Positions 24,346 through 63,853 of a DNA stretch of 64,000 nt are shown here, in pieces. The notes beneath the pieces were generated by a model, which was not told the DNA's origin, made no database searches, and saw only the letters and a program-made list of their open reading frames with translations. A program made the translations under genes and the position numbers. Source of the stretch: a phage. The stretch lies in the NCBI GenBank assembly GCA_022979955.1, contig GCA_022979955.1_3642.1. One strand, 5' to 3'. Every line of letters starts with the position of its first letter. The first letter of the stretch is position 1.

Positions 24346-24807
24346 CTACTTGAACAACAGTTCAAGATAGTGCAAAATTAACAGAAGTTGAATTACGCCT
24401 AGCACAACGGCGAGTATGTTAATCTTAGAATCAAAAAACTTCTTAACTTTTACCCTAAAAGGCTCTTTAATGTCCTTTACGATCCTATTTATAGATGATT
24501 TCATATCCCTGATTACCATCCTAAACATTAGAGACGGATCCTCCTTCTCTGTAACAGAATCGAAAACATACTCTCTTCGGTCATAAGGCCCTCCAGATCT
24601 GCGTATTAACCTCTCCACAGAGACCTCGTACGACACACCTGTAACGTAATCATCTATGACAAGTAGTGACGGGTCTTTATCATCCAAGGGTATCAAAGTT
24701 ATCTTTCCAGATCTTGTTAAAATTTCTCCTTTTTCAAGCAAGGTGTACCAATGCTCTCTACCAAGGTTGTTGAGGCACGTTTTTACATATTTAACAAACA
24801 TCGTCAC
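24346..24807 (-). CDS. hypothetical protein with C-terminal TM anchor
   Basis: ORF track; hydrophobic C-terminus. Confidence 0.5.
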   Translation of the reverse strand: MTMFVKYVKTCLNNLGREHWYTLLEKGEILTRSGKITLIPLDDKDPSLLVIDDYVTGVSYEVSVERLIRRSGGPYDRREYVFDSVTEKEDPSLMFRMVIRDMKSSINRIVKDIKEPFRVKVKKFFDSKINILAVVLGVIQLLLILHYLELLFK

Positions 24808-26913: not shown

Positions 26914-27198
26914 CTACCAGGTTACTGTCAAGTAGGCAACCGTGTTATTTTTCTCTGGAGAGATGCCAACAACATCTACCTGCAGACCTCCTGCCCTCAA
27001 ATCCCCAACAATATGCGGGAAGTAATCTGAGAGATGTGAGGGTAGATTTATCGAAAATCCGCATCCCAGAAAGCCTGCTAACGCTTTATTTTGTATCTCC
27101 CCTACAATCGCATCATAAATGGAGTTAAGCTCGTCAGGGAGCGTTACAGGACGTTTTAGCGCTAACTGGTGCAACTTGTCCTTAGCACTCATTTTCAT
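26914..27198 (-). CDS. hypothetical protein
   Basis: ORF 26914..27267 trimmed to ATG at 27198 giving ATGA overlap with upstream methyltransferase. Confidence 0.45.
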   Translation of the reverse strand: MKMSAKDKLHQLALKRPVTLPDELNSIYDAIVGEIQNKALAGFLGCGFSINLPSHLSDYFPHIVGDLRAGGLQVDVVGISPEKNNTVAYLTVTW

Positions 27199-27728
27199 TT
27201 CAAATCTGCCTCTGGTGGTGCCAACCACATAAATGGCGGCAAGTTTAGACGGTTTTTCTTGTCCCATACAAAATATGCATATGCCTGCCCATCCGTTCTA
27301 CCATTGGATTGGAATGACGGGCGCTTAGATATTGTGATCACAGTGGTAGGTGCATTATCAAGCCACCATTCAAATCTGGCCTTGCTTTCCAGAAAATTAA
27401 GACGCAAAAGCATAATAACTACGTCAGCATCTTTCAACGCCTTGTCTACAAACTCACGAGCCAGGCTGTATGGTGGGTTGGTGATAATACAGTCAACATG
27501 GTTGTATTCTGTATTCAGATAGTCAACACCTTCTTGGATTTCTCCCCATGCAGATCCTAACGGCATACGGGAGTAGAACACACCTGAGGCACTATTCCTG
27601 CAAGGCTCTAAGTAGGTCCAGTCTTCTGGGAACGGAATAAGGTCATACAGCCCTTCTGCACACCACTCCGGTGTCACATACTCATCGTAGGCGTTACGTT
27701 GTTCATCAGGTTTTCTAGCACAAGTCAT
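27195..27728 (-). CDS. small DNA N6-adenine methyltransferase-like protein
   Basis: motif IV DCIITNPPYS; motif I-like LEPCRNSASG upstream. Confidence 0.55.
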   Translation of the reverse strand: MTCARKPDEQRNAYDEYVTPEWCAEGLYDLIPFPEDWTYLEPCRNSASGVFYSRMPLGSAWGEIQEGVDYLNTEYNHVDCIITNPPYSLAREFVDKALKDADVVIMLLRLNFLESKARFEWWLDNAPTTVITISKRPSFQSNGRTDGQAYAYFVWDKKNRLNLPPFMWLAPPEADLK

Positions 27729-27741
27729 GCAAATCTCCAGA

Positions 27742-27770
27742 TCATAAAAGCCCTCCGAAGAGGGCTTTAG
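27742..27770 (-). terminator. hairpin terminator (bidirectional-looking)
   Basis: AAAGCCCTC-CGAA-GAGGGCTTT flanked by A and T runs. Confidence 0.5.
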
Positions 27771-27779
27771 AATTAATGT

Positions 27780-28826
27780 TTAAGCTTCTTCGACAATTCC
27801 TGCACCCAGGATTTTTTCATTGAGCTCTTTTGCTGTTTTAATAATATTGTCCACCAGACGCTTGCGAGTCTTATCTTTCACCTTAACCTCTTCACCGCCG
27901 TTCAGAGTAGTCTTCAATTGAGACAGAATATCCTGAAGTTCAACGACAGAGAATCTCTGCAGATCTTCTGAAGTAATCTCACCTAGGGCAATTCTGACGG
28001 TCTCGCCACTTTCCATCTGCAGATTCAGGAACACAGTGTGAACATCACCTTTCGAACCAACCGCTTTCGCAGATTCAACAGCATGAACTAACTCATCTAA
28101 AGAGGTGCACTGGTGAATCTCAGGAAGACCTGCTTCACCTAACACTCCTTCATCACCTTTTGCCAGAAGCTTTTTAGGTTTTTGTCCGTTCTGGATGCGT
28201 TGTATGTTACCTTCATCCAGAATAATAGCTCCAGTGCGTGCTGCCAGCTCTTCTCCGTCCAACCACACTTCGCCACCAGCTGTGATGGATGCGATCTCAT
28301 CTTCTGTCAGCACCCCACCGTAGTATTTTTCGATCAGGCGTTCGAAACGTTTTTTCCAGTAGCTGACCTGAGTATTCATGTTCACACCGTTACCATAAGT
28401 GCCGCCTTGATAGTAGTGGAACATAAACTCTGTGTCCGGAGCCACGGTGCGTTCTTTGCAACCCAGCCATAGGATTGTTCCAGCAGAGCAGCACATCCCT
28501 TCAGCATGTGCAACAACGCTTGCCTGAGATTCGCGGAATGCCTGCAGATAAGCCATTGCAATGTGCACGCAACCCCCAGGGCTATTGATGATTACCCGAA
28601 TGCTTTCTTCCGGCTGAGCCATACGGATCGTCTGCAGACGAGACATATGATCCTGCAGGTCTTCCAAATCGTCGATATAAAGAACGTGGTCAACAACAGG
28701 TGTTGGGTAGCTGTATGTTTCCATGATACCGCCCGGCATACCAAACATTTTATTACTCATAGGTTCGAAACCGTTCTGTTTTTCTTTCATGCCGTGTACC
28801 ATGGTGCTGCGAGGTGTTAAATTCAT
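27780..28826 (-). CDS. ClpP-like (S14 family) serine protease with C-terminal coiled-coil extension
   Basis: INSPGG motif; Ser in GMCCSAG, His in FMFHYYQGG, Asp in WLDGEE; about 150-aa Ala/Glu/Lys-rich tail. Confidence 0.6.
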   Translation of the reverse strand: MNLTPRSTMVHGMKEKQNGFEPMSNKMFGMPGGIMETYSYPTPVVDHVLYIDDLEDLQDHMSRLQTIRMAQPEESIRVIINSPGGCVHIAMAYLQAFRESQASVVAHAEGMCCSAGTILWLGCKERTVAPDTEFMFHYYQGGTYGNGVNMNTQVSYWKKRFERLIEKYYGGVLTEDEIASITAGGEVWLDGEELAARTGAIILDEGNIQRIQNGQKPKKLLAKGDEGVLGEAGLPEIHQCTSLDELVHAVESAKAVGSKGDVHTVFLNLQMESGETVRIALGEITSEDLQRFSVVELQDILSQLKTTLNGGEEVKVKDKTRKRLVDNIIKTAKELNEKILGAGIVEEA

Positions 28827-28886: not shown

Positions 28887-29321
28887 TTATTTAGCAATCA
28901 CTATGGAATACTTACGATTGTCAGAAGCATCACAACTCAATGATTGCCAGTCTACCACATACCACGTATCATTGTCAACAATTACTTTATCGCCTGTTCT
29001 GTAGCAGGTGCTGCTTTCAATAATCCGAGACTCGATAAAGAATCTGTGTCGGCGCTCACGTAGCAACGCTAAGTTGATTATATTACCACCACTGTCCTTG
29101 ATCCACACATTCTTGGATCCTTTATTTGCCAAAATTGTCTCGCCGTTATAGACAAACAGGCAGTATATTTTATTCAGTTTCTCTTGTATTGTAGCCATAC
29201 TGTCCTCCTCCTTGTTTTGTCCGATAATAATATCTAAAGCTTGCCTATTTGTCAACAACTGTTTTAGATATTTAAGGGTGGAATAACCACCCTTCTGTAT
29301 TACTCGGAAACAGGGGTCCAA
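28887..29321 (-). CDS. hypothetical protein
   Basis: ORF track. Confidence 0.45.
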   Translation of the reverse strand: MDPCFRVIQKGGYSTLKYLKQLLTNRQALDIIIGQNKEEDSMATIQEKLNKIYCLFVYNGETILANKGSKNVWIKDSGGNIINLALLRERRHRFFIESRIIESSTCYRTGDKVIVDNDTWYVVDWQSLSCDASDNRKYSIVIAK

Positions 29322-30088
29322 ATATGATTTGCACGATCCTCAATAAGATTGAGTGCAATCTGACGACCCAACCCGGAACGAACGACATCATCTGGACTAT
29401 CAAAGCTGATCATTCCAACCTCAGGATCTGGATGACGAGTAAAGAAATCCGTCACCCATGCAAGGCCAGATTTACCAGGGATGTCACGTTGGCTATTATC
29501 GCCCATAATTACAAGGGTTGCCTGATCAGAGATCCTTGTGATAATTGACAACATTTCTTCAGGGTTAGTTTGCTGTGCCTCGTCAATCAGGACAAAGCAT
29601 CGCTCATCGAAACTACGACCACGAATGCTTTCAACTTCACAAATCTCGATACGGCTGTTCTGACCGTCTCCCAGCATTGCGGCAAAAGCACCTTTACCAA
29701 CACGACGACAAATCGTGTCCATCATGCTTCGAAGATAGGGCCACAGTTTCTGCATTGCATTTCCGGGTTTAAATCCTGAAGTCTTTCCTGTCTGGACGTA
29801 AGGACGTGCAACAATGATCTTATCAATCTCGTTCTTACGCAGAAGATCACCTGCATATGCAGATGCCATGAATGTCTTACCGGATCCAAACACACCGTTT
29901 ACAATAATAATCTTACGTGACCCTAGATAATCAAGATACTTTTGCTGCTTCTTATTCATTGGTCGGAGAGCTGGAGCGGTGTGCTCTCGTTCGTCAGCAA
30001 ATTTCTCAGCAGCCTTACGCAGGCGATCAGATTTGCGAGCCTCTCTAGCTTCATCACGCATGCGTTTTGTTTCTTTAGCTCGACCCAT
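29300..30088 (-). CDS. phoH: PhoH-like ATPase
   Basis: Walker A GVFGSGKTF; Walker B-like FVLIDEAQ; size typical of phage PhoH. Confidence 0.7.
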   Translation of the reverse strand: MGRAKETKRMRDEAREARKSDRLRKAAEKFADEREHTAPALRPMNKKQQKYLDYLGSRKIIIVNGVFGSGKTFMASAYAGDLLRKNEIDKIIVARPYVQTGKTSGFKPGNAMQKLWPYLRSMMDTICRRVGKGAFAAMLGDGQNSRIEICEVESIRGRSFDERCFVLIDEAQQTNPEEMLSIITRISDQATLVIMGDNSQRDIPGKSGLAWVTDFFTRHPDPEVGMISFDSPDDVVRSGLGRQIALNLIEDRANHIWTPVSE

Positions 30089-31299: not shown

Positions 31300-32292
31300 T
31301 CAGCAACCACAACTTCCGTAGTGCTTAACTCGCTCGATAACTTCCGCTTGCTTACCTTTATTGTAAGGACGGGAGTTAGGACTGGAAAGATATCCAGACA
31401 CTCTTCGGATCACTGAGATATATTGTTCATCGTGGCATCCACACGCAGGGCAGCAGAACCCTTTAGCTGTTGCACTGAACTCACCAGAGAAACCGCACTT
31501 AAGACATTTATCCACAGGCTGGTTAATACCAAAATACATAATGTGTTTATATCCGAAATCAACAAGAGCTTCCAAAGCATCTAAGTTGTTTTTCAGATTT
31601 GGTGTCTCTATGTACCCAATGTTGCCACCAGAGGAGATCATAGCAAAACCTTCCTCATACTTCCACTTATCAAAAGGCGAGCTATTTATCCATACTGGCT
31701 GATGGAAACTGTTGGTGAGATATTCATGCTCATGCTTCAACACTTCAGGATATTCACGATCCAGACAGGTTGCAGCTTTATAGCATAGACTCTCAGAAGG
31801 GGTGCCGTACAAGCTAAACGCTAGTCTACTTTCCTTCTTGTATCGCTCACAAGCATCTCTCATGTGCTGAAGGATTCCAAGAGCTAAAGCCTTGTCACCC
31901 TCTCTGCCCAAAATCTGACAGGTTTCATACACACCAATATACCCAATACTGATGGAAGCGTACCCGTCATAGAAGAGTTTATCAATACTCTCTTCAGGAT
32001 CCAGGCGAGCAAGAGCGCCTTCACACCACATGATAGGGTTCTGCCCTGCCTTGGTGCCTTTCAGACGGTTAACCCTTACAAGGTGAGCTTCATATGCCAA
32101 ATCCAGATACTCGTCAAGAACGGCAAAGAAATCAACACCTTCCGTCTTAGCTTTTGCCGCAATCATTGGTAGGTTAAGGCTAACAACACCCAAGTTGAAT
32201 CTGCCGAGGTATTTCTCCTCGCCTGTTACAGGGTCGCTATATTTCGATAAGAAACTTCTACACATTATGTTCAGGGTGGTTCGCAAGTCCAC
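31300..32292 (-). CDS. nrdD: anaerobic ribonucleoside-triphosphate reductase, C-terminal exon (glycyl-radical domain)
   Basis: GRFNLGVVSLNLP, Zn-site cysteines CLKCG...CPACGC, glycyl radical motif RVSGY; exon boundary upstream of 32292 not resolved. Confidence 0.7.
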   Translation of the reverse strand: MDLRTTLNIMCRSFLSKYSDPVTGEEKYLGRFNLGVVSLNLPMIAAKAKTEGVDFFAVLDEYLDLAYEAHLVRVNRLKGTKAGQNPIMWCEGALARLDPEESIDKLFYDGYASISIGYIGVYETCQILGREGDKALALGILQHMRDACERYKKESRLAFSLYGTPSESLCYKAATCLDREYPEVLKHEHEYLTNSFHQPVWINSSPFDKWKYEEGFAMISSGGNIGYIETPNLKNNLDALEALVDFGYKHIMYFGINQPVDKCLKCGFSGEFSATAKGFCCPACGCHDEQYISVIRRVSGYLSSPNSRPYNKGKQAEVIERVKHYGSCGC

Positions 32293-33015
32293 CCCCGCAC
32301 CTTTACGTGCTGCTGCATGTTCCCATGCAGATCAGACTATATCTTCACACTTAGTGTGTCTACCATTTCGAGTGTCATCGGCTTACACCCTACACCGCTA
32401 CATTCATCACGGTTAGTCGTTAGGCATTTCGTAACAGAACTCGTAATCATAGTTATTAGGCGCACCACGTTTCAGGATAGCAGATATTCTTTTTCTATCC
32501 ACTCCTAAAACATCAGCACAACATCTCAGACTTTTAAAGTGGAAAACCTCACCAGTTAATTTGTTGGTGGCTTTCACACCGTGGCATCTTGTGTAAAAAG
32601 CATAACAGTTGTTGTTGTATCCTTCTTGCGTATTGTCTGGGCAAGCTCCCCACTCAAGGTTGTATACACTGTTATCTTTCCTGTTGTCCCCTTTGTGCTT
32701 AACATAGGGTAAATTGTCTGGATTTGGTAAGAACGCTTCAGCAACAAGTCTGTGAACCCTTAGGCAAACAGTCTTTTTGTTCTTGCGTATCCTAACAAGA
32801 CGGTAACCTGTGTTTATCTCTTCCCACGAATGAATAATTCTTTCATTTTCGTAGCGGGTGCAATAAACATTGCCCATCTCGTCAATTTCATAACCTTCAA
32901 AATCACGAATTTGTTTTCTCATTTCAGGACTCCTCTTGGTCAGGAGTTCTGTTACGTTTAGCACGGGATTGTCCGTTCTGGAGTTTCCCCGTTTAGATAG
33001 ATTTTACATGAGCAG
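32293..33015 (-). mobile_element. putative group I intron in nrdD carrying an HNH homing endonuclease gene
   Basis: nrdD reading frame interrupted; free-standing HNH ORF with own start inside. Confidence 0.5.
32413..32964 (-). CDS. HNH homing endonuclease
   Basis: HRLVAEAFLPNPDNLPYVKHKGDNRKDNSVYNLEW pattern typical of phage HNH endonucleases. Confidence 0.7.
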   Translation of the reverse strand: MLNVTELLTKRSPEMRKQIRDFEGYEIDEMGNVYCTRYENERIIHSWEEINTGYRLVRIRKNKKTVCLRVHRLVAEAFLPNPDNLPYVKHKGDNRKDNSVYNLEWGACPDNTQEGYNNNCYAFYTRCHGVKATNKLTGEVFHFKSLRCCADVLGVDRKRISAILKRGAPNNYDYEFCYEMPND

Positions 33016-51300: not shown

Positions 51301-52062
51301 TTAAAGTTCCATAAAGTTTTCTACAGTCTCAATGAATGTTTTATCAGAGAAGGCATCAACCGCACCGTTAAACCAAACTGGGATGCCACGATCCTCATAC
51401 TGGTAAATATCACTACGTGAAATGCCATTCTCCTCTAGATGCTGTGAGTCGTATTTATTAACGATCAGTAGTTTGGTTCCCTTATTGCAGGCAGGGAATA
51501 GCTCCCAGTTAAAATTGATAACTGTGTTGGAGCACCCTACAAGGATAACCATATCATTGCTCGTAAGAGAAGTCAACAGGTCATACATGTCTGTATACTT
51601 CGGAGCTACTTCTCCGAAGAACACCACATTAGGCTTAACCCAGGTATACTTTCCTGCGTCTACCTCAGAGTATCCAATGTCCTTAATGACGTCACTTCCT
51701 TCATCGTCCTCATAGACTATTTCTGGCAAATACCCGTGGACATGTAAAATATCTTCATGTTTTACACCAGCACGCTCCAGCAAATCATCTACATTGGTGG
51801 TAAGGTTGATCACACGACCAGACCAGCGGGAATACCACTCAGCGATCCGAAGATGTGCAAGGTTAGGCTCAACACTGCCTAAAGCTACACGACGTGCATT
51901 GTAAAAGTCATGCACCTTATAGTAGTTCTTGGCAAAGGTGTGGATGTTGCACACCTCATCGATGCTGAAATTCTCCCACATTGCAGTGCTACCAGATCGG
52001 AAAGTGGGAATACCAGATTCAGCGCTCAAACCAGCACCGGAGATAATAATCAGTCGTCGCAT
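51301..52062 (-). CDS. Sir2-family (sirtuin-like) NAD-dependent protein, apparently lacking Zn-ribbon
   Basis: GAGLSAESGIPTFR, TTNVDDLLERAG, VHGYL, VVFFGE motifs; no CxxC pairs between them. Confidence 0.7.
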   Translation of the reverse strand: MRRLIIISGAGLSAESGIPTFRSGSTAMWENFSIDEVCNIHTFAKNYYKVHDFYNARRVALGSVEPNLAHLRIAEWYSRWSGRVINLTTNVDDLLERAGVKHEDILHVHGYLPEIVYEDDEGSDVIKDIGYSEVDAGKYTWVKPNVVFFGEVAPKYTDMYDLLTSLTSNDMVILVGCSNTVINFNWELFPACNKGTKLLIVNKYDSQHLEENGISRSDIYQYEDRGIPVWFNGAVDAFSDKTFIETVENFMEL

Positions 52063-52070
52063 AAGTGTCC

Positions 52071-52421
52071 TCAGTAGATGTTTTGTTTAATCTCTATTCC
52101 AAACTTTTTAAACGAGTCAGCTGCAAGCATGAATTTACGAGCCGCTGATGGGTTAGAAGTATGCACGAAAATCTTCACGTTGTCAACTACAGGAGGCTTA
52201 CCAAATACAAATTTTTCCTCCAACATAGATAGGCAATCGTACCCTTCGAATACCTCTCCAAGGTCGTTGTCCATATGCCACTCAGAAACGCGTCTGTAGA
52301 GCTTTCTATTATCGTTAATAAAATCTATAAACTCGGAGGAATTCTTTAGCCAAACAGCGTCTTGGAGCCCGTACTTTGACGGATCTCTCAAGTCATCCAG
52401 CCACACAATCAACTTCTTCAT
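52071..52421 (-). CDS. hypothetical protein (possible CheY-like receiver fold)
   Basis: ORF 52071..52451 trimmed to MKKLIV start at 52421 abutting RNA ligase stop; DD...D...T pattern IVWLDD / HMDNDLGE / VHTSNP. Confidence 0.4.
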   Translation of the reverse strand: MKKLIVWLDDLRDPSKYGLQDAVWLKNSSEFIDFINDNRKLYRRVSEWHMDNDLGEVFEGYDCLSMLEEKFVFGKPPVVDNVKIFVHTSNPSAARKFMLAADSFKKFGIEIKQNIY

Positions 52422-53353
52422 TGCATATAGTCCTCGTTGTGAAAATAGCAATCAAGTATCTCACGGCGTTCCTGCTCCAGGAGGCAGTTCCACACATCTT
52501 CTGTGTAATTGCTACGAATGAAGTTTACCATGCCGTAAAACTCTTCGTCAATACGTTTAAAGATATCATCATCCCAAATCTTCCAAGCTTTACCCCTCAT
52601 TACGGCCTTCCGTGCCAAATAGTATGGAGACTTGATCTTCAGCTGCAGGTCATAAGGGTAGTAAGGCTTACGGATCATATACCCTTCGCCCCTTGTTTCT
52701 GCAGCTAATTCTTTTGCATAGCTGAACGGGATTTCACGCACAGTGTGAGGACGTTTTGCACCAAGGTATTTGGCAATCCCATCTAAAGCTGCTTCTGGTA
52801 GCATTATTCCAGAATCATTATATCTGCAACCTATCAAATATGCGCCATGGTCTTCTTGAACAATATGCGGATCTGAAGGGTGACAAATTTCAAACATGAA
52901 TGTCATGTTTTCATTGCCCATAACCTTCTTGATAAGATCTAAATTACCACATTGCTCTTGGATGGTTTCCTTTGCAAGGTTACAATATGGAGAATCAAGA
53001 GACCCGGTTGTTGAGAACAATAGGTCACCTTTATGAGATGATACCACACCAAGGAATCCGTTCTTTTTCTCTACCGCAGTCACAAGCTTATTGTCAGGCA
53101 GGTTGGTGGAGTTTTCTCCCAAGTTAAACACTTTTGTGAAGGGCCATGCCACAACATTTCCTTCATTACCTACAACAATGCCTCGGCACTCCAGTAAACG
53201 AGGGGACAAATGCCATAAATTGTTGTAAAATACTTTTCTAGCATATTTATAGATCTTTAACCCGAGATCTGGGTAATACCTACTGGTTACAAGACCTTTG
53301 TCAACTAGGTCGTCTGCATTAAAATACTTCATCATACGTTCCTCATTTGTCAT
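52418..53353 (-). CDS. Rnl1-family RNA ligase
   Basis: LLECRGIVVGNEG...TKVFNLGEN...TAVEKKNGFLGVV tracks T4 Rnl1 segment ALECRGIMF...KFFNLNEN...TKEDGSLVS (recalled), incl. motif I lysine. Confidence 0.65.
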   Translation of the reverse strand: MTNEERMMKYFNADDLVDKGLVTSRYYPDLGLKIYKYARKVFYNNLWHLSPRLLECRGIVVGNEGNVVAWPFTKVFNLGENSTNLPDNKLVTAVEKKNGFLGVVSSHKGDLLFSTTGSLDSPYCNLAKETIQEQCGNLDLIKKVMGNENMTFMFEICHPSDPHIVQEDHGAYLIGCRYNDSGIMLPEAALDGIAKYLGAKRPHTVREIPFSYAKELAAETRGEGYMIRKPYYPYDLQLKIKSPYYLARKAVMRGKAWKIWDDDIFKRIDEEFYGMVNFIRSNYTEDVWNCLLEQERREILDCYFHNEDYMQ

Positions 53354-58993: not shown

Positions 58994-59277
58994 GAGTTGC
59001 TACACTGTTTATTGCGTGCTTGTTATTATGTGGGTGTGCAACCAGTGTTGAGAAAGAATACAAGATTGACCCTCCAGATGTAGGAAGGTTGATTGTTAAA
59101 CCCCCAGAAGGTGCCATGAAACCACCTGCTAAAGCTATGCCTTTGAAGAAAGGTGCGCCAGATGCAGTGAACTCTGGCATTATGAGGGATAATAATCTGT
59201 CTTGTAGCAATGATAGAGCTAAATTGATCATTTTGCAAGACTATATTAGAACACTGTTTCCAAAGGAGAGAGGTTAA
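58990..59277 (+). CDS. putative o-spanin (Rz1-like lipoprotein)
   Basis: signal peptide with lipobox LLCGC; Pro-rich mature region; ATGA overlap with upstream gene. Confidence 0.5.
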   Translation: MRVATLFIACLLLCGCATSVEKEYKIDPPDVGRLIVKPPEGAMKPPAKAMPLKKGAPDAVNSGIMRDNNLSCSNDRAKLIILQDYIRTLFPKERG

Positions 59278-59705
59278 TGTCTAAGATTTACGGACCGTGT
59301 TCTGAAAAGCAGAAGATGATCCTAGAAAACGATGCAGATATTTTGGTAATCGGCGGTGCCGCAGGGTCTGGCAAGTCGTTCCTCTTGCAGTTGATGCCAC
59401 TTAAAATTATTGATGACCCCCACAGCTCTGTGGTTATGTTCCGAAGAACAACCCCACAGTTGGAAGGTGAGGGTGGACTATGGCCTAAAGCAGTAGCTAT
59501 TTATAGTGATCTGCCTGAAAACATTAAGCCAAAGTTCAGAGAGAAGGATCATAAGTTCATTTTTCCACGGTTTGATCCGAACACTGGCAAGTGGGATAGG
59601 AGCAAAAAGGGAGCTGTTGTAAAATACTGCCACATGGAGTATGTACAAGATAAGCTTAACCATCAAGGGCTTGAGTACACCATGGTTTGCTTCGATGAGG
59701 GTTAA
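59277..59705 (+). CDS. terL: terminase large subunit, N-terminal exon (ATPase Walker A/B)
   Basis: Walker A VIGGAAGSGKS, Walker B-like MVCFDEG immediately before stop; C-terminal part resumes at about 60619. Confidence 0.6.
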   Translation: MSKIYGPCSEKQKMILENDADILVIGGAAGSGKSFLLQLMPLKIIDDPHSSVVMFRRTTPQLEGEGGLWPKAVAIYSDLPENIKPKFREKDHKFIFPRFDPNTGKWDRSKKGAVVKYCHMEYVQDKLNHQGLEYTMVCFDEG

Positions 59706-60640
59706 TTTGTAGCTCTCGTAAAACCTCCCTAATTGCGGGGAAATCTTTATTATTGACACCACCAACCTGTTATGGTAACATAATAGAGGCTTCGAAGAGA
59801 GATCGAAGGTATGGTAATAGTGTGTTAATTTAGATAATCCGCAGCGAAGCATCCGAGAGGATGAACGTTCAACGACTAGTCGAAAGACGTAGAATCAAGC
59901 GATTCGAAACGGGAGGGTGAATGTGTAATACTAAAAAATGTATGGATTGTCAAAGAGTTCTACCTATTGATGATTTCTTTTTATCATCTAAGAGCAAGGA
60001 TGGATACTCAGGTACATGCAAGGAATGCTATATGTACTACAGGAAGGGTGGATCTCGTAAAAACAAAAATATGGTTAAGAGAGATGACGCAGCATTGTTT
60101 ATTCAAGACTTGCTGAAGAAAGGTGAACTTTTTGAATGCAAATCTTGTCATGAAAGTATGCTCGCTGATAGTTTTTACACAAAACGTGACTATGGTAAAG
60201 TATACCTGGTTACGAACAGGTGTAAGATGTGTGAAAAGTTTTATCAGATTGAGAAAAAATTTCACATAACAAAAGATGAATACTATCGTCTACTCTCAGA
60301 TCAAGATCATAAGTGTGCCATTTGTAGAATATCTCTTGATGAGTATAGGACGCAAGGGTACAGAGATTTCTTTTGTGTTGATCATGACCATAAAACTGGC
60401 GCTGTAAGAGGGTTGCTTTGTGATAAATGCAACAGAGCTTTAGGTTTCTTCCAAGAGGATGAGGAAACTATTCTTAGAGCGGCAGAGTATTTGCACATTC
60501 ATAAGATATAGTCTGGTCTGCATGGAGACATGCAGCTGCCTGAAAATGGCGGGGCAAGACTAGCGACCTTGCCCGAACATAAACGACACAATTCGAATGG
60601 GAGCAGATAGACTACCTGATGTCTCGTTTGCGATCTCAGT
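59706..60640 (+). mobile_element. putative group I intron in terL carrying an HNH homing endonuclease gene
   Basis: terL frame interrupted right after Walker B; structured-looking flanks; free-standing HNH ORF with own SD; boundaries approximate. Confidence 0.5.
59921..60511 (+). CDS. HNH homing endonuclease (endonuclease VII-type motif)
   Basis: CVDHDHKTGAVRGLLCDKCNRALG motif plus N-terminal Cys-rich region; GGGAGGGTGA SD. Confidence 0.7.
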   Translation: MCNTKKCMDCQRVLPIDDFFLSSKSKDGYSGTCKECYMYYRKGGSRKNKNMVKRDDAALFIQDLLKKGELFECKSCHESMLADSFYTKRDYGKVYLVTNRCKMCEKFYQIEKKFHITKDEYYRLLSDQDHKCAICRISLDEYRTQGYRDFFCVDHDHKTGAVRGLLCDKCNRALGFFQEDEETILRAAEYLHIHKI

Positions 60641-61707
60641 CAAAGTATCCATCAAGGATGGTTATCAGCTGTAACCCTGATTCAGAACACATGCTTGCCA
60701 AACTGGTTAGATGGTGGTTGGACGATGAAGGGTATCCAGATCCGGAGAAATGTGGTAAGAAAAGATATTTTATCCGACGCGACGGTGAATTTATTTGGGG
60801 AGACTCTAAGGAAGAGTTGATAGAGAAATACACCACGGTTAACGGACTGGGTGTAGAGATCAAGCCAAGACCGTTGTCATTCTCGTTCATAGGCGCAACA
60901 ATATTTGATAATCCTGTCTGTTTGAGAGACAACCCAGAATACCTTGCTTTCCTCGAAGGTCTGCCAGAGCTGGAAAAAGCTCAGCTTCTCCATGGTAACT
61001 GGTTTGCAAAGCCTGAGGGTGCAAACTATTTTCAAAGATCTTTCCTTCGTGATGCCGATAGAGTACCCCTTGGATCAGTATCTTGCAGGGCATGGGATAA
61101 GGCAGGAACCGAGAGAACTTCTGGCAATAAATTTCCTGACTTTACTGCCAGTATTAAGGTAAGTAAAGATAGCGACGGCTTTTATTACCTGTCAGGGGAT
61201 TATTGTCCTGAAAACGTGGATGACGGGAGGTATTCCACAGGTCTGGAAGGCAAGTTCTGTAAAAAGGCTGGTGAACGAGATGTGATCATCAGGAAACAGG
61301 CGCAGTTTGATGGTGATGATTGCATAATCGTATTCTCTGTGGACCCTGGTCAGGCAGGTAAGAGTGAGTTCTTAACCTCATCCAGATCCTTGCTCGCCGA
61401 AGGGTTCAGGGTTGAAGAAGACCCAATGCCTTCCAACAAATCTAAACTGACAAGGTTCTCACCTTTTGCCAATCTTGCACAACAAGGGATGGTGAGGATT
61501 GTAAAATCCAGTTTCCATCCTGATACTCTGGAAGCATTTCTGACTGAACTTGAAAAATTCAACGGGGAAAGATCAACATTTAACAGAAAAGACGACTGGG
61601 CAGACTGTGTAGCTTCTGCGATTAATTTCCTGGAGAAAGAGGAGGTAGCACTTCCTTGTGTGATTCCATCAATCTCATCACCTTCTATGTTCAAGCGTTT
61701 TATCTAA
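60619..61707 (+). CDS. terL: terminase large subunit, C-terminal exon (nuclease domain); true exon start unresolved
   Basis: continues terminase after the intron (ISCNPD segment near start); size and position before portal. Confidence 0.55.
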   Translation: MSRLRSQSKYPSRMVISCNPDSEHMLAKLVRWWLDDEGYPDPEKCGKKRYFIRRDGEFIWGDSKEELIEKYTTVNGLGVEIKPRPLSFSFIGATIFDNPVCLRDNPEYLAFLEGLPELEKAQLLHGNWFAKPEGANYFQRSFLRDADRVPLGSVSCRAWDKAGTERTSGNKFPDFTASIKVSKDSDGFYYLSGDYCPENVDDGRYSTGLEGKFCKKAGERDVIIRKQAQFDGDDCIIVFSVDPGQAGKSEFLTSSRSLLAEGFRVEEDPMPSNKSKLTRFSPFANLAQQGMVRIVKSSFHPDTLEAFLTELEKFNGERSTFNRKDDWADCVASAINFLEKEEVALPCVIPSISSPSMFKRFI

Positions 61708-61809: not shown

Positions 61810-63366
61810 GTGTCCAAAAAGAACCGCAGGAAACACAACGCCACAGCCAAAACTGTGAATAAATCTGGGAACGCAGGCGCACCAACTCATAATGTTCGTA
61901 TGAGTGAGATCGGTTCTGGCGCACTTTCCCAAATTATGGCAGAATCGCAATCTATGATGGTTGAGGAATTGCGTTGGCCTCAGCTGATTGCCACAGTGGA
62001 GACTATGAAATGTGATTCCACAGTTGCTACTGCCTTAGATACAAAATATGTTTTCATCACGAAAGCATTCAATGATTTTAAGATCCTTTATAATGTTAAA
62101 AGTGAAGACTCTAAGAAAGCTGCTGAGCTTATAGAGTATTCTTTGCGTAATTTGGCAAACCAACAAACTCTTCGAGATATTGCAAGAAGCGCAGCTACCT
62201 TTAACGAGTATGGTTTTTCACTGTTTGAGAAAGTATACCGCAGAGAGAAAGAAGGTAAATATGCCGGGATGCTTCTTATTGATAAAATTGCATTCCGACC
62301 TCAGGCCAGTTTGTCCAGATCAGAGCCGTTTGTCTTTGACAAGAATAGTAGAACACTGACAGGTATTTATCAGTCACCTAATGCATTTCTAAACACTCAG
62401 AATGCACGCTGGGCTGGACCTCTTGCTGCAATGCCTTCAAAAGGCTTTAATGAGCCTGAAATTTTCATCCCTGCTAAAAAGCTTATGCTCATGACCCTGT
62501 CAGGAACAGAATCTAACCCTGCAGGTGTGTCACCGATGATAGGTTGCTACAGATCTTTCCGTGAGAAAGTTCTGATTGAAAACCTTGAGGTTGTTGGCTG
62601 TTCCAAAGACCTTGGTGGTGTGCTTGAGCTGAAAATTCCTTCCAATATTTTGAACAAGGCCAGCATTGACCCGAATTCAATGGAAGGGAGAATGGTTGCA
62701 GACCTTATGCTTGACGCAGCAAACGCCCATAGTGGTGAGCAAAGTTTCTTTATACTTCCGTCTGATAGAGATAAGTCTGGTAAAGAGCTTTACTCCATGA
62801 CCCTGAAGGGGGTTGACGGTATGGGTAAGCAATATTCCACTAAAGATTTGATCGATGCCCGTAAGAAGGCGATTCTTGACCGTTTCGGTGCTGGCTTTAT
62901 TAACCTCGGTAACGATAACGTTGGATCCTTCTCTCTGTCTGAGTCAAAACAGTCTATCCATGGTCATTTTGTTCAGCGTGATATAGATATTATCACTGAA
63001 GCCTTCAATAAGGATCTTATTCCACAGCTTCTGGCATTGAATGGTATCATCCTTGAAGATGATGATATGCCTAAACTGAAACCTGGTCTGATTGAAGAGG
63101 TGGACATGGAGAGCTTCTCCAAGTTTGTCCAGAGGATCGGTGCTGTAGGTTACTTGCCAAAAACTCCTGCAGTAATTAATAAGATTCTTGAAGTAGGCGG
63201 GTTTGATGAAAGATTTGACGAGGACATGGATCAGGAAGAGCTGATGAAGCTCTTGGGCCAGGACATCAGTAGGGCTGGTGATGGAATGGCTGCAGGATCC
63301 ACTGGTAACGGCACTTCTAAGATGTCATCAACCAGAGATAATTCCATATCCAACATGGAAAATTAA
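61810..63366 (+). CDS. putative portal protein (GTG start)
   Basis: 518 aa directly downstream of terL; GAGGGG SD before GTG; call by position and size only. Confidence 0.45.
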   Translation: MSKKNRRKHNATAKTVNKSGNAGAPTHNVRMSEIGSGALSQIMAESQSMMVEELRWPQLIATVETMKCDSTVATALDTKYVFITKAFNDFKILYNVKSEDSKKAAELIEYSLRNLANQQTLRDIARSAATFNEYGFSLFEKVYRREKEGKYAGMLLIDKIAFRPQASLSRSEPFVFDKNSRTLTGIYQSPNAFLNTQNARWAGPLAAMPSKGFNEPEIFIPAKKLMLMTLSGTESNPAGVSPMIGCYRSFREKVLIENLEVVGCSKDLGGVLELKIPSNILNKASIDPNSMEGRMVADLMLDAANAHSGEQSFFILPSDRDKSGKELYSMTLKGVDGMGKQYSTKDLIDARKKAILDRFGAGFINLGNDNVGSFSLSESKQSIHGHFVQRDIDIITEAFNKDLIPQLLALNGIILEDDDMPKLKPGLIEEVDMESFSKFVQRIGAVGYLPKTPAVINKILEVGGFDERFDEDMDQEELMKLLGQDISRAGDGMAAGSTGNGTSKMSSTRDNSISNMEN

Positions 63367-63433: not shown

Positions 63434-63853
63434 ATGCCACAGGAAGAAATGATTTCCTACGAAATCATCTACGAGCCTGACACTAAAGATGCTCACGGTG
63501 AGTGGATGAGTAAAGACACCATCAAAAAGGCTAAAGATAACTGGGACGCAGCATACGCCGCAGGCCTAGTTTCTGAGAACCTTTTCCACTTGACCTCTAC
63601 AGATGCTTTCACCATTGAAAAAACGTGGATTCAAGAAGAGTTTGATGTTGTAGTAATTGGCACTGAGCAGGTCATCAAGGCTGGCTCTTGGGTTGCTAAA
63701 GTTAAATACAATAATCCTGAACTATGGGAAGCTAAGAAGGCTGGCATTGTTGGTGGCCTAAGCATTCAGGCAACAGGTAATGTTGATGAAGAAACTGGTG
63801 AAATTACCAACGTAAACTTCGGGATCAGTGTTGTAGAAGAGGGCAATGAATAA
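63434..63853 (+). CDS. hypothetical head-module protein
   Basis: ORF 63278..63853 trimmed to ATG with GGGG SD; follows portal gene. Confidence 0.4.
   Translation: MPQEEMISYEIIYEPDTKDAHGEWMSKDTIKKAKDNWDAAYAAGLVSENLFHLTSTDAFTIEKTWIQEEFDVVVIGTEQVIKAGSWVAKVKYNNPELWEAKKAGIVGGLSIQATGNVDEETGEITNVNFGISVVEEGNE

Follow-up and report, generated by a model that had tools for sequence, protein, structure and literature searches.

A ClpP-fold peptidase gene in the DNA-metabolism block of rV5-type phages: no recognisable unfoldase docking site and probably no role as the capsid-maturation protease

The closest described counterpart of the gene considered here is ORF122 of the Escherichia coli phage rV5, which was entered as 'ClpP (ATP-dependent) protease subunit' with the Pfam family PF00574 when that phage was described in 2013 (PMC3606486, Table S3). 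The gene is named 'ATP-dependent protease' in rV5 (rv5_gp117, corresponding to ORF122) and 'ClpP-like protease' in the BASEL phage MaxBurger. A homolog is encoded in a 64,000-nucleotide stretch of phage DNA (contig GCA_022979955.1_3642.1 of assembly GCA_022979955.1), referred to below as the window. Its coding sequence occupies positions 27780..28826 of the minus strand and specifies 348 amino acids from an ATG start that is preceded, at a distance of 7 nt, by an AAGGA Shine-Dalgarno sequence. As it was named in the 2013 paper and in relatives, the ClpP-like feature is already catalogued; the open reading frame (ORF) listing, the PHROG and Pfam matches, and the DNA identity all identify it as a known, annotated gene of rV5-type E. 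coli phages.

Database matches to the 3.2 kb surrounding the gene comprised 123 phage records, of which 110 covered 80% or more of this segment with 90-99% identity. These records correspond to rV5-like E. coli myophages of the genus Vequintavirus, to which the window has a DNA identity of about 98%. The profile of PHROG 5410, the Vequintavirinae 'ATP-dependent protease', matched the protein over its full length (E=2.3e-153, residues 24-344 versus profile positions 4-322/323). Nineteen GenBank records named 'Campylobacter phage' (host Campylobacter jejuni; MG065635-MG065682) are 98-100% identical to the window, and one of them encodes a 100% identical ClpP-like protein; the Campylobacter host label of these records is probably wrong.

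The data are best accounted for by a ClpP-fold peptidase that is active without ClpX/ClpA, is produced from a sigma70-type middle-phase unit, and acts in the cytoplasm as a ring with a C-terminal recruitment or tethering domain, a joint reading to which a probability of roughly 0.6 is assigned. According to this reading, the host RNA polymerase would transcribe a short unit composed of a sigma70 promoter, a small ORF, the ClpP-like gene, and a terminator; expression would presumably coincide with that of the middle-phase DNA and nucleotide-metabolism genes, and the product, probably assembled into a ClpP-like ring, would act in the infected cell's cytoplasm. Because the hydrophobic ClpX/ClpA docking pocket has been lost, we infer that peptides, unfolded proteins, or specifically recruited proteins would be degraded without an AAA+ partner, and the family-specific C-terminal domain may serve as the recruitment or tethering module. 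The protein is a member of a phage-specific, non-structural ClpP-fold clade (PHROG 5410, sister to PHROG 1827), is probably a catalytically active serine peptidase that uses a Ser114-His137 pair with Glu186, and is probably not a capsid-maturation protease.

A preliminary description of this locus had proposed the ClpP-like identity, and this proposal was borne out. Pfam CLP_protease (PF00574) matched residues 59-168 with 47.7 bits (E=2.2e-12), above the gathering cut-off of 20.2 bits, and the motifs GMCCSAG and FMFHYYQGG cited in that description are found in the ORF at residues 110-116 and 134-142. An AlphaFold2 monomer model, built from 41 homologs, contains a ClpP-fold catalytic domain at residues 44-215 (28182..28697, minus strand) with a predicted local distance difference test (pLDDT) score of 85-93. 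A Foldseek comparison of this model with the PDB returned only ClpP structures as top matches, with a target template modelling score of about 0.7 over about 167 aligned columns and about 20% identity. The 'handle' helix of 20 residues (150-169) is present in the model. The N-terminal region, residues 1-43 (28698..28826, minus strand), is predicted to be disordered (pLDDT about 30) and varies in length among homologs, with a conserved FG..PG...YP motif in the alignments; nothing equivalent to helix A or to the axial loops of ClpP was modelled there, and these residues could not be aligned convincingly to the ClpP N terminus.

In the alignments, Ser114 (codon 28485..28487, minus strand), the predicted nucleophile in GMCCSAG, corresponds to ClpP Ser97, and His137 (codon 28416..28418, minus strand), the predicted general base in FMFHYYQGG, to ClpP His122; solved ClpPs place the motif serine and histidine on these same catalytic residues. 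Ser114 is invariant in the 41 family members, four short-form phage homologs, and three head-maturation proteases, His137 is invariant in the 41 homologs, and the oxyanion glycine is, together with Ser and His, invariant in the 41 homologs and in more distant phage homologs. Of the Ser/His/Asp context initially claimed, the serine and the histidine thus stand but the aspartate does not, and the cellular ClpP triad is matched at two of its three positions. The position of ClpP Asp171 is occupied by Glu186 (codon 28269..28271, minus strand) in this protein, by Gln in 36 of the 41 family sequences, and by Asp in the ICP1, KVP40-like, and T5-like homologs. The suggested profile search with Peptidase_S14/S49 gave the CLP_protease match, whereas Peptidase_S49 (SppA/lambda gpC; Ser-Lys dyad) had no Pfam match at E<=1, and the histidine aligned to ClpP His122 is invariant.

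The altered third position, Gln in most relatives and Glu here, bears on the alternative that the protein is weakly active or inactive and has a non-proteolytic role, for instance as a decoy, as a chaperone-like cage, or, by means of its C-terminal domain, as a factor for assembly or tethering. The loss of the Arg170 'sensor' position and the conservation of a family-specific C-terminal domain are in line with this view, and non-catalytic ClpP paralogs exist in the form of plant and cyanobacterial ClpR. However, strict invariance of Ser114, His137, and the oxyanion Gly across very divergent phages is the pattern expected of an active enzyme, capsid maturation proteases of verified gene context also carry Glu at the third position, and Ser/His dyad hydrolases can function without an acid. 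Such a weakly active or non-catalytic protein is considered very unlikely.

The docking site for an unfoldase was compared with that of E. coli ClpP on the basis of alignments plus the monomer model, using the list of acyldepsipeptide (ADEP)/IGF-pocket residues given in bioRxiv 10.1101/2023.03.01.530711. In the E. coli ClpP sequence used for this comparison, Ser97, His122, and Asp171 are at the expected positions, and the PDB alignments agree. The pocket residues Y60, F82, I90, and M92 are replaced by R, E, H, and E, respectively, each invariant in the 41 sequences; L114 is replaced by S or A, L48 and F49 are deleted in the family alignment, and Gly is found at the position of ClpP Arg170. The four charged residues that replace the hydrophobic docking pocket are R77, E99, H107, and E109, and their invariance in the 41 sequences suggests a conserved polar interface, either inter-subunit or partner-binding, and not a simple decay of the pocket. 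The hydrophobic pocket is missing from the short-form homologs of other phages, too. The models for cellular ClpP remained far below their curated cut-offs (TIGR00493, 33.2 versus 308.6 bits; PRK12553, 39.2 versus 228 bits; PRK00277, 38.2 versus 249 bits).

As no unfoldase docking site can be recognised, the protein, judged from its sequence, is not a ClpP in the functional sense. The 'ATP-dependent' label lacks support and is probably wrong, since the docking pocket is missing and the protein scores below the cut-offs of the ClpP equivalog models. These results bear on the possibility of a genuine ClpP subunit that forms a tetradecamer, either alone or mixed with host ClpP, and is driven by host ClpX/ClpA to re-target ATP-dependent proteolysis. 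Such a subunit would agree with the above-threshold Pfam match, with top PDB sequence and fold matches that are all ClpP, with the retention of the handle helix needed for ring-ring contacts, and with the conserved Ser, His, and oxyanion Gly, but it is at odds with docking residues that have become invariantly charged or are deleted, with Gly at the Arg170 position, with an unrecognisable axial-loop/helix A region, with the absence of the pocket from the short-form homologs as well, and with scores of 33-39 bits for the equivalog and subfamily models against cut-offs of 228-309. It is scarcely to be expected and is the least likely of the explanations considered.

Relatives in other phages support a non-structural function. 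The protein was found by tblastn in 1,095 phage records. Full-length homologs (PHROG 5410; 40-69% identity) are limited to Vequintavirinae-like phages of Escherichia, Salmonella, Cronobacter, Klebsiella, and Erwinia, and the catalytic domain alone is homologous to proteins of PHROG 1827 (29-36% identity, 63-97 bits). Among the latter, gp211 of ICP1 is encoded two genes from PhoH and near NrdAB and ligase, gp041 of PaP1 near ligase and dCMP deaminase, clpP of the KVP40-like phage phi-pp2 between frd and uvsX, and the ClpP-like gene of a T5-like Klebsiella phage adjoins a dNMP kinase gene. These positions show that at least four unrelated lineages keep a ClpP-fold gene among DNA-metabolism genes. 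T4-type phages, including the KVP40-like ones, possess a gp21-type prohead protease. The head module of PaP1 has the order portal, S78_2, scaffold, and major capsid protein (MCP), as in rV5. In ICP1, RNA sequencing classified gp211 as 'Middle-late', the same class as the PhoH protein gp208, and gp125, within the late capsid cluster gp122-126, was identified by the authors as the maturation protease (PMC7567579). Only for rV5, PaP1, and ICP1 was a head-module protease distinct from the ClpP-like protein observed here or reported.

Mutually homologous HNH homing endonucleases (phrog_953) adjoin the ClpP-like gene in ICP1 (gp209) and in a Klebsiella Mydovirus (BIS47_133), which suggests that the ClpP-like locus is a recurrent homing site. 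Both had been considered as partners of the protease and were rejected, because as HNH homing endonucleases they are mobile elements.

The gene is part of a minus-strand block that extends from about 16 to 53 kb and that, in the window and in relatives, contains ribonucleotide reductases, thymidylate synthase, ligase, exonucleases, methyltransferases, PhoH, and the ClpP-like gene. Upstream of it is a small ORF of 103 aa (28887..29198, minus strand), a homolog of rV5 ORF121 assigned to phrog_5456 and without a Pfam match, which is kept one or two genes upstream of the ClpP-like gene in Mydovirus and Henunavirus. This ORF is probably co-transcribed with the ClpP-like gene and could encode a partner or regulator of the protease. 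A sigma70-type promoter-like site (TTGACA-17-TATTAT, 11/12; 29227..29255, minus strand) is located just upstream of the small ORF and equals P121 of rV5, and a terminator-like hairpin with a U-run (27747..27768, minus strand), 12 nt past the ClpP-like stop codon, equals t122; its 9-bp GC-rich stem has a predicted energy of -14.7 kcal/mol (z=-3.85). The rV5 authors independently list P121 and t122, and their putative late-promoter motif is listed only for the structural region (Table S4, PMC3606486). This motif has no exact copy in the window; copies with one mismatch are scattered, including upstream of the portal and S78_2 genes. No published transcription time course for a Vequintavirus was found in the literature searched.

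The flanking genes named in the preliminary description are present, with the qualification that only one of them is an immediate neighbor: the N6-adenine DNA methyltransferase-like gene (27195..27728, minus strand; phrog_799, E=2.6e-67) lies immediately downstream, and one small ORF separates the protease gene from the upstream gene for a PhoH-like P-loop ATPase (29300..30088, minus strand; Pfam PhoH, E=3.6e-47). The gene order around the protease is shared among the Vequintavirinae genera: PhoH follows endolysin or Nrd genes, between one and four small genes, phrog_5456 among them, separate it from the ClpP-like gene, and the next gene is of the methyltransferase or HNH type. PhoH is conserved as a neighbor in Vequintavirinae and ICP1 but not in PaP1, KVP40-like, and T5-like phages. 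The context is compatible with the regulatory role, or degradation of host or defence proteins, that had been suggested, and a cytoplasmic role is plausible; neither the ClpP-like protein nor the small upstream ORF matched a PADLOC defence model.

The C-terminal region differs from what had been expected. Residues 216-239 (28110..28181, minus strand) form a variable linker with gappy, unconserved alignment columns that is predicted to be disordered (pLDDT about 38), and residues 240-341 (27804..28109, minus strand) a family-specific domain composed of a helix, a beta-hairpin, and a helix-loop-helix. Two AlphaFold2 runs gave the same picture of a disordered linker followed by one helix, a beta-hairpin, and a pair of further helices, 15 and 21 residues long, and no heptad-repeat window was detected in the extension. 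According to these models, the region of about 130-150 aa is a small domain behind a linker and not the long coiled-coil tail initially described. Nor is it Ala/Glu/Lys-rich as had been stated, since it contains 6% Ala, 11.5% Glu, 9.5% Lys, and 12% Leu, with A, E, and K together accounting for 27% versus 19% in the N-terminal part. In the family alignment, Phe292 and Glu296 of this domain are invariant and Leu297, Arg321, and Leu324 nearly so.

When the C-terminal domain alone was searched against 1.84 billion representative proteins, the real matches were family members only; three long repetitive proteins were rejected as biased or spurious matches. The presumed likeness to protease-scaffold fusions of the lambda C/Nu3 or P2 gpO type was not upheld, given that the predicted structure has neither heptads nor a long helical scaffolding domain. 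A kinship to the extension of the capsid maturation protease of Gordonia phage Clark was likewise rejected (hhalign E=0.16); the long high-scoring segment pair obtained by BLAST with the Clark protease is a low-identity continuation of the catalytic-domain match. Pfam HeH matched the domain as a fragment only (E=0.065), and hhalign comparisons with approximate sequences of the PIAS1 SAP domain and the Rho N terminus gave E values of about 0.3.

Capsid maturation most likely falls to the S78_2 gene that adjoins the portal gene. The head module is encoded on the plus strand, where the window holds spanins, the terminase large subunit, the portal, and a 139-aa protease candidate. The terminase large subunit gene (59277..61707, plus strand) is split into 59277..59705 and 60619..61707 with an HNH-type ORF (59921..60511) in between, and introns in this gene were reported for rV5 (PMC3606486). 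The portal gene (61810..63366, plus strand) is directly followed by the prohead protease candidate of the Peptidase_S78_2/XkdF type (63434..63853, plus strand; PF14550, E=8.7e-18, 65 bits versus a cut-off of 24), whose His52 and Ser110 are conserved with the PaP1 homolog; a search by sequence gave no relative of solved structure. In MaxBurger, the S78_2 gene is annotated as prohead protease and is followed by genes for scaffold, decoration, and lambda-E-type MCP, which here lie just past the window edge. As a side observation, phrog_1530, which belongs to the Peptidase_S78_2 family, is described as 'DNA methyltransferase', a label also carried by PaP1 gp048, and this looks like a propagated annotation error.

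The start of the ClpP-like gene is 30.5 kb from the terminase, 33.0 kb from the portal, and 34.6 kb from the S78_2 protease gene, all on the opposite strand, in agreement with the distance of about 30 kb reported earlier. Adjacent capsid or scaffold genes, which would have pointed to a window-edge artefact, are absent, and the odd location is therefore real. The idea of a dislocated prohead protease loses its motive because the head module already has a protease; it is disfavoured as a present-day function but retains some truth as a statement on evolutionary kinship to head-maturation proteases.

This kinship is apparent from several comparisons. The best NCBIfam match was NF045542, 'head maturation protease, ClpP-related' (60.4 bits, E=2e-16), at half of its cut-off of 120, and the PHROG head-maturation families 1684, 94, 2976, and 133 matched at 53-79 bits, with phrog_1684 scoring 79 bits (E=6.6e-22). 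By BLAST, the non-structural clade (63-97 bits) ranks before the head-maturation proteases (46-54 bits) and these before E. coli ClpP (42 bits). Three ClpP-type capsid maturation proteases with verified portal/protease/capsid context, from Gordonia phage Clark, Vibrio phage K233, and Bacteroides phage p00, were compared directly and were found to show the same pocket departures, plus Glu or Asp at the third triad position. On these scores and alignments, the simplest view is that the clade is a sister group or an offshoot of the phage ClpP-type maturation proteases.

It is in this context that a second or auxiliary head-maturation protease has to be weighed. Its C-terminal domain would give such an enzyme access to proheads, where scaffold, portal, or internal proteins would be its substrates, and it would either replace the S78_2 protein or work in parallel with it. 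The best non-self profiles are indeed phrog_1684, phrog_94, and phrog_2976, together with NF045542 as top NCBIfam match; the polar pocket, the acidic M92 position, and the third-position Glu/Asp are common to capsid maturation proteases, which also bear long C-terminal extensions (402 and 339 aa); the ICP1 ortholog is 'Middle-late', and the block also codes for a virion protein, rV5 ORF133. Nevertheless, a complete module of portal, S78_2, scaffold, decoration, and MCP genes exists, the double arrangement is also found in PaP1 and ICP1, NF045542 reaches only 60 of 120 bits, the transcription unit carries sigma70-type signals, and the C-terminal domain has no homology to a real capsid protease extension. 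An auxiliary role in the head is consequently regarded as distinctly unlikely.

A more elaborate scenario reconciles the ancestry with the location. The protein may be an exapted capsid-maturation protease: the ClpP-type enzyme, once displaced from the head module by the S78/XkdF type, would have been kept among the DNA-metabolism genes of several unrelated large lytic phages to serve as a cytoplasmic protease that needs no unfoldase, with the Vequintavirinae C-terminal domain, possibly a nucleic-acid-binding helix-extended-helix, directing it to host, nucleoid-associated, or defence proteins. In this full form the scenario is a tentative proposal and remains unlikely.

Several points weigh against the preferred reading of an unfoldase-independent cytoplasmic peptidase. 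Most relatives have Gln as the third triad residue, which could point to a low intrinsic activity. Pocket geometry and oligomeric state are both read from alignments and a monomer model, and the literature searched yielded neither an experiment on this protein nor a functional study of any other phage ClpP-like protein of the non-structural kind. The nearest relatives beyond the clade are ClpP-type head-maturation proteases and not cellular ClpP, and as these share the polar pocket and the Glu/Asp, such features alone do not exclude a capsid role. The genomic location is not decisive either. 'Middle-late' expression of the ICP1 ortholog is not 'early' and overlaps the onset of head assembly, and a late-promoter-like 10-mer with one mismatch lies inside the 103-aa ORF (29079..29088, minus strand), which is itself not decisive. 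Mass spectrometry of rV5 virions identified 19 proteins, and ORF122 is not among them (PMC3606486); this absence is uninformative, since prohead proteases normally leave the capsid. Furthermore, the product of rV5 ORF133, a gene of this block at a distance of 3 kb, was abundant in the virion data, and position in this block alone therefore does not exclude particle association. The window contains its homolog at 24346..24807 (minus strand; 153 aa, with a hydrophobic C-terminal helix), and ORF133 may either belong to the virion proper or have been a contaminant from membranes. The rV5 protein 'gp133', one of the predominant virion proteins, was also considered as the ClpP-like product and rejected; in the numbering of the rV5 paper it equals ORF133 (rv5_gp128), a different protein of 151 aa.

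Other features of the minus-strand block were noted. The gene for NrdD, the class III anaerobic ribonucleotide reductase, is interrupted (31300..32964, minus strand; C-terminal part 31300..32292) by a homing-endonuclease-like ORF of 183 aa at 32413..32964, and MaxBurger has a two-piece join with a 'putative homing endonuclease' here. The end of the block contains a homolog of Sir2-like NAD-dependent deacetylases (51301..52062) and a T4 RnlA-like RNA ligase gene (52418..53353, minus strand), and relatives have a RaiA-like ribosome hibernation factor annotated within this block.

On present evidence, the gene is an ordinary one that had been catalogued before. It is conserved in well over a hundred Vequintavirus genomes, and homologous catalytic domains are encoded by ICP1 and by PAK_P1/PaP1-like, KVP40-like, and T5-like phages, among them model phages and candidates for therapy. 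What this work adds is a corrected description, namely, that of a protein in which no unfoldase docking site can be recognised, that is probably not a head protease, that carries a family-specific C-terminal domain, and that belongs to a recurrent non-structural clade. For annotation, the label 'ATP-dependent Clp protease subunit', though widespread, is probably incorrect, and the protein should not be counted as the head protease, a slot most likely filled by the S78_2/XkdF gene next to the portal. Should host or defence proteins prove to be its targets, it would represent a widespread and simple tool for phage takeover.

Four known systems allow this protein to be placed. Cellular ClpP (MEROPS S14; TIGR00493) shares with it the overall fold with the handle helix, the catalytic Ser and His, the oxyanion Gly, and the motifs INSPGG and QGG, but identity is about 20%, Glu or Gln takes the place of Asp171 and Gly that of Arg170, the ClpX/ClpA pocket has polar residues or deletions, no N-terminal gate region can be recognised, and a C-terminal region of 130 aa is additional. 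The ClpP-related head-maturation proteases (NF045542; PHROGs 1684, 94, 2976, and 133; Clark gp5, K233, and p00) have in common with it the ClpP fold, the Ser/His pair, Glu or Asp at the third position, the lack of a hydrophobic docking pocket, an acidic residue at the M92 position, and frequent C-terminal extensions; however, their genes lie between portal and scaffold/MCP, whereas the ClpP-like gene is 30-35 kb off in a DNA-metabolism block, and their C-terminal domains are unrelated to that of the ClpP-like protein.

The stand-alone proteins of PHROG 1827 (ICP1 gp211, PaP1 gp041, KVP40-like ClpP, and the Klebsiella phage 'ATP-dependent protease') resemble it in the invariant Ser/His, the polar pocket, and the location of their genes within replication or nucleotide-metabolism blocks. 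They differ in the absence of the Vequintavirinae C-terminal domain, the PaP1 and Klebsiella phage proteins comprising 182 and 203 aa and the ICP1 protein carrying an unrelated tail of 150 aa, and several of them retain Asp at the third triad position. Finally, rV5 ORF122/gp117 and its Vequintavirus orthologs (PHROG 5410) represent the same gene, with 96-100% protein identity, and rV5 ORF122 likewise has PhoH, the small ORF, and the methyltransferase gene as neighbors and is framed by promoter P121 and terminator t122. Nothing substantive distinguishes the gene described here from rV5 ORF122, other than that the published label of the latter implies an ATP dependence that the sequence does not support.

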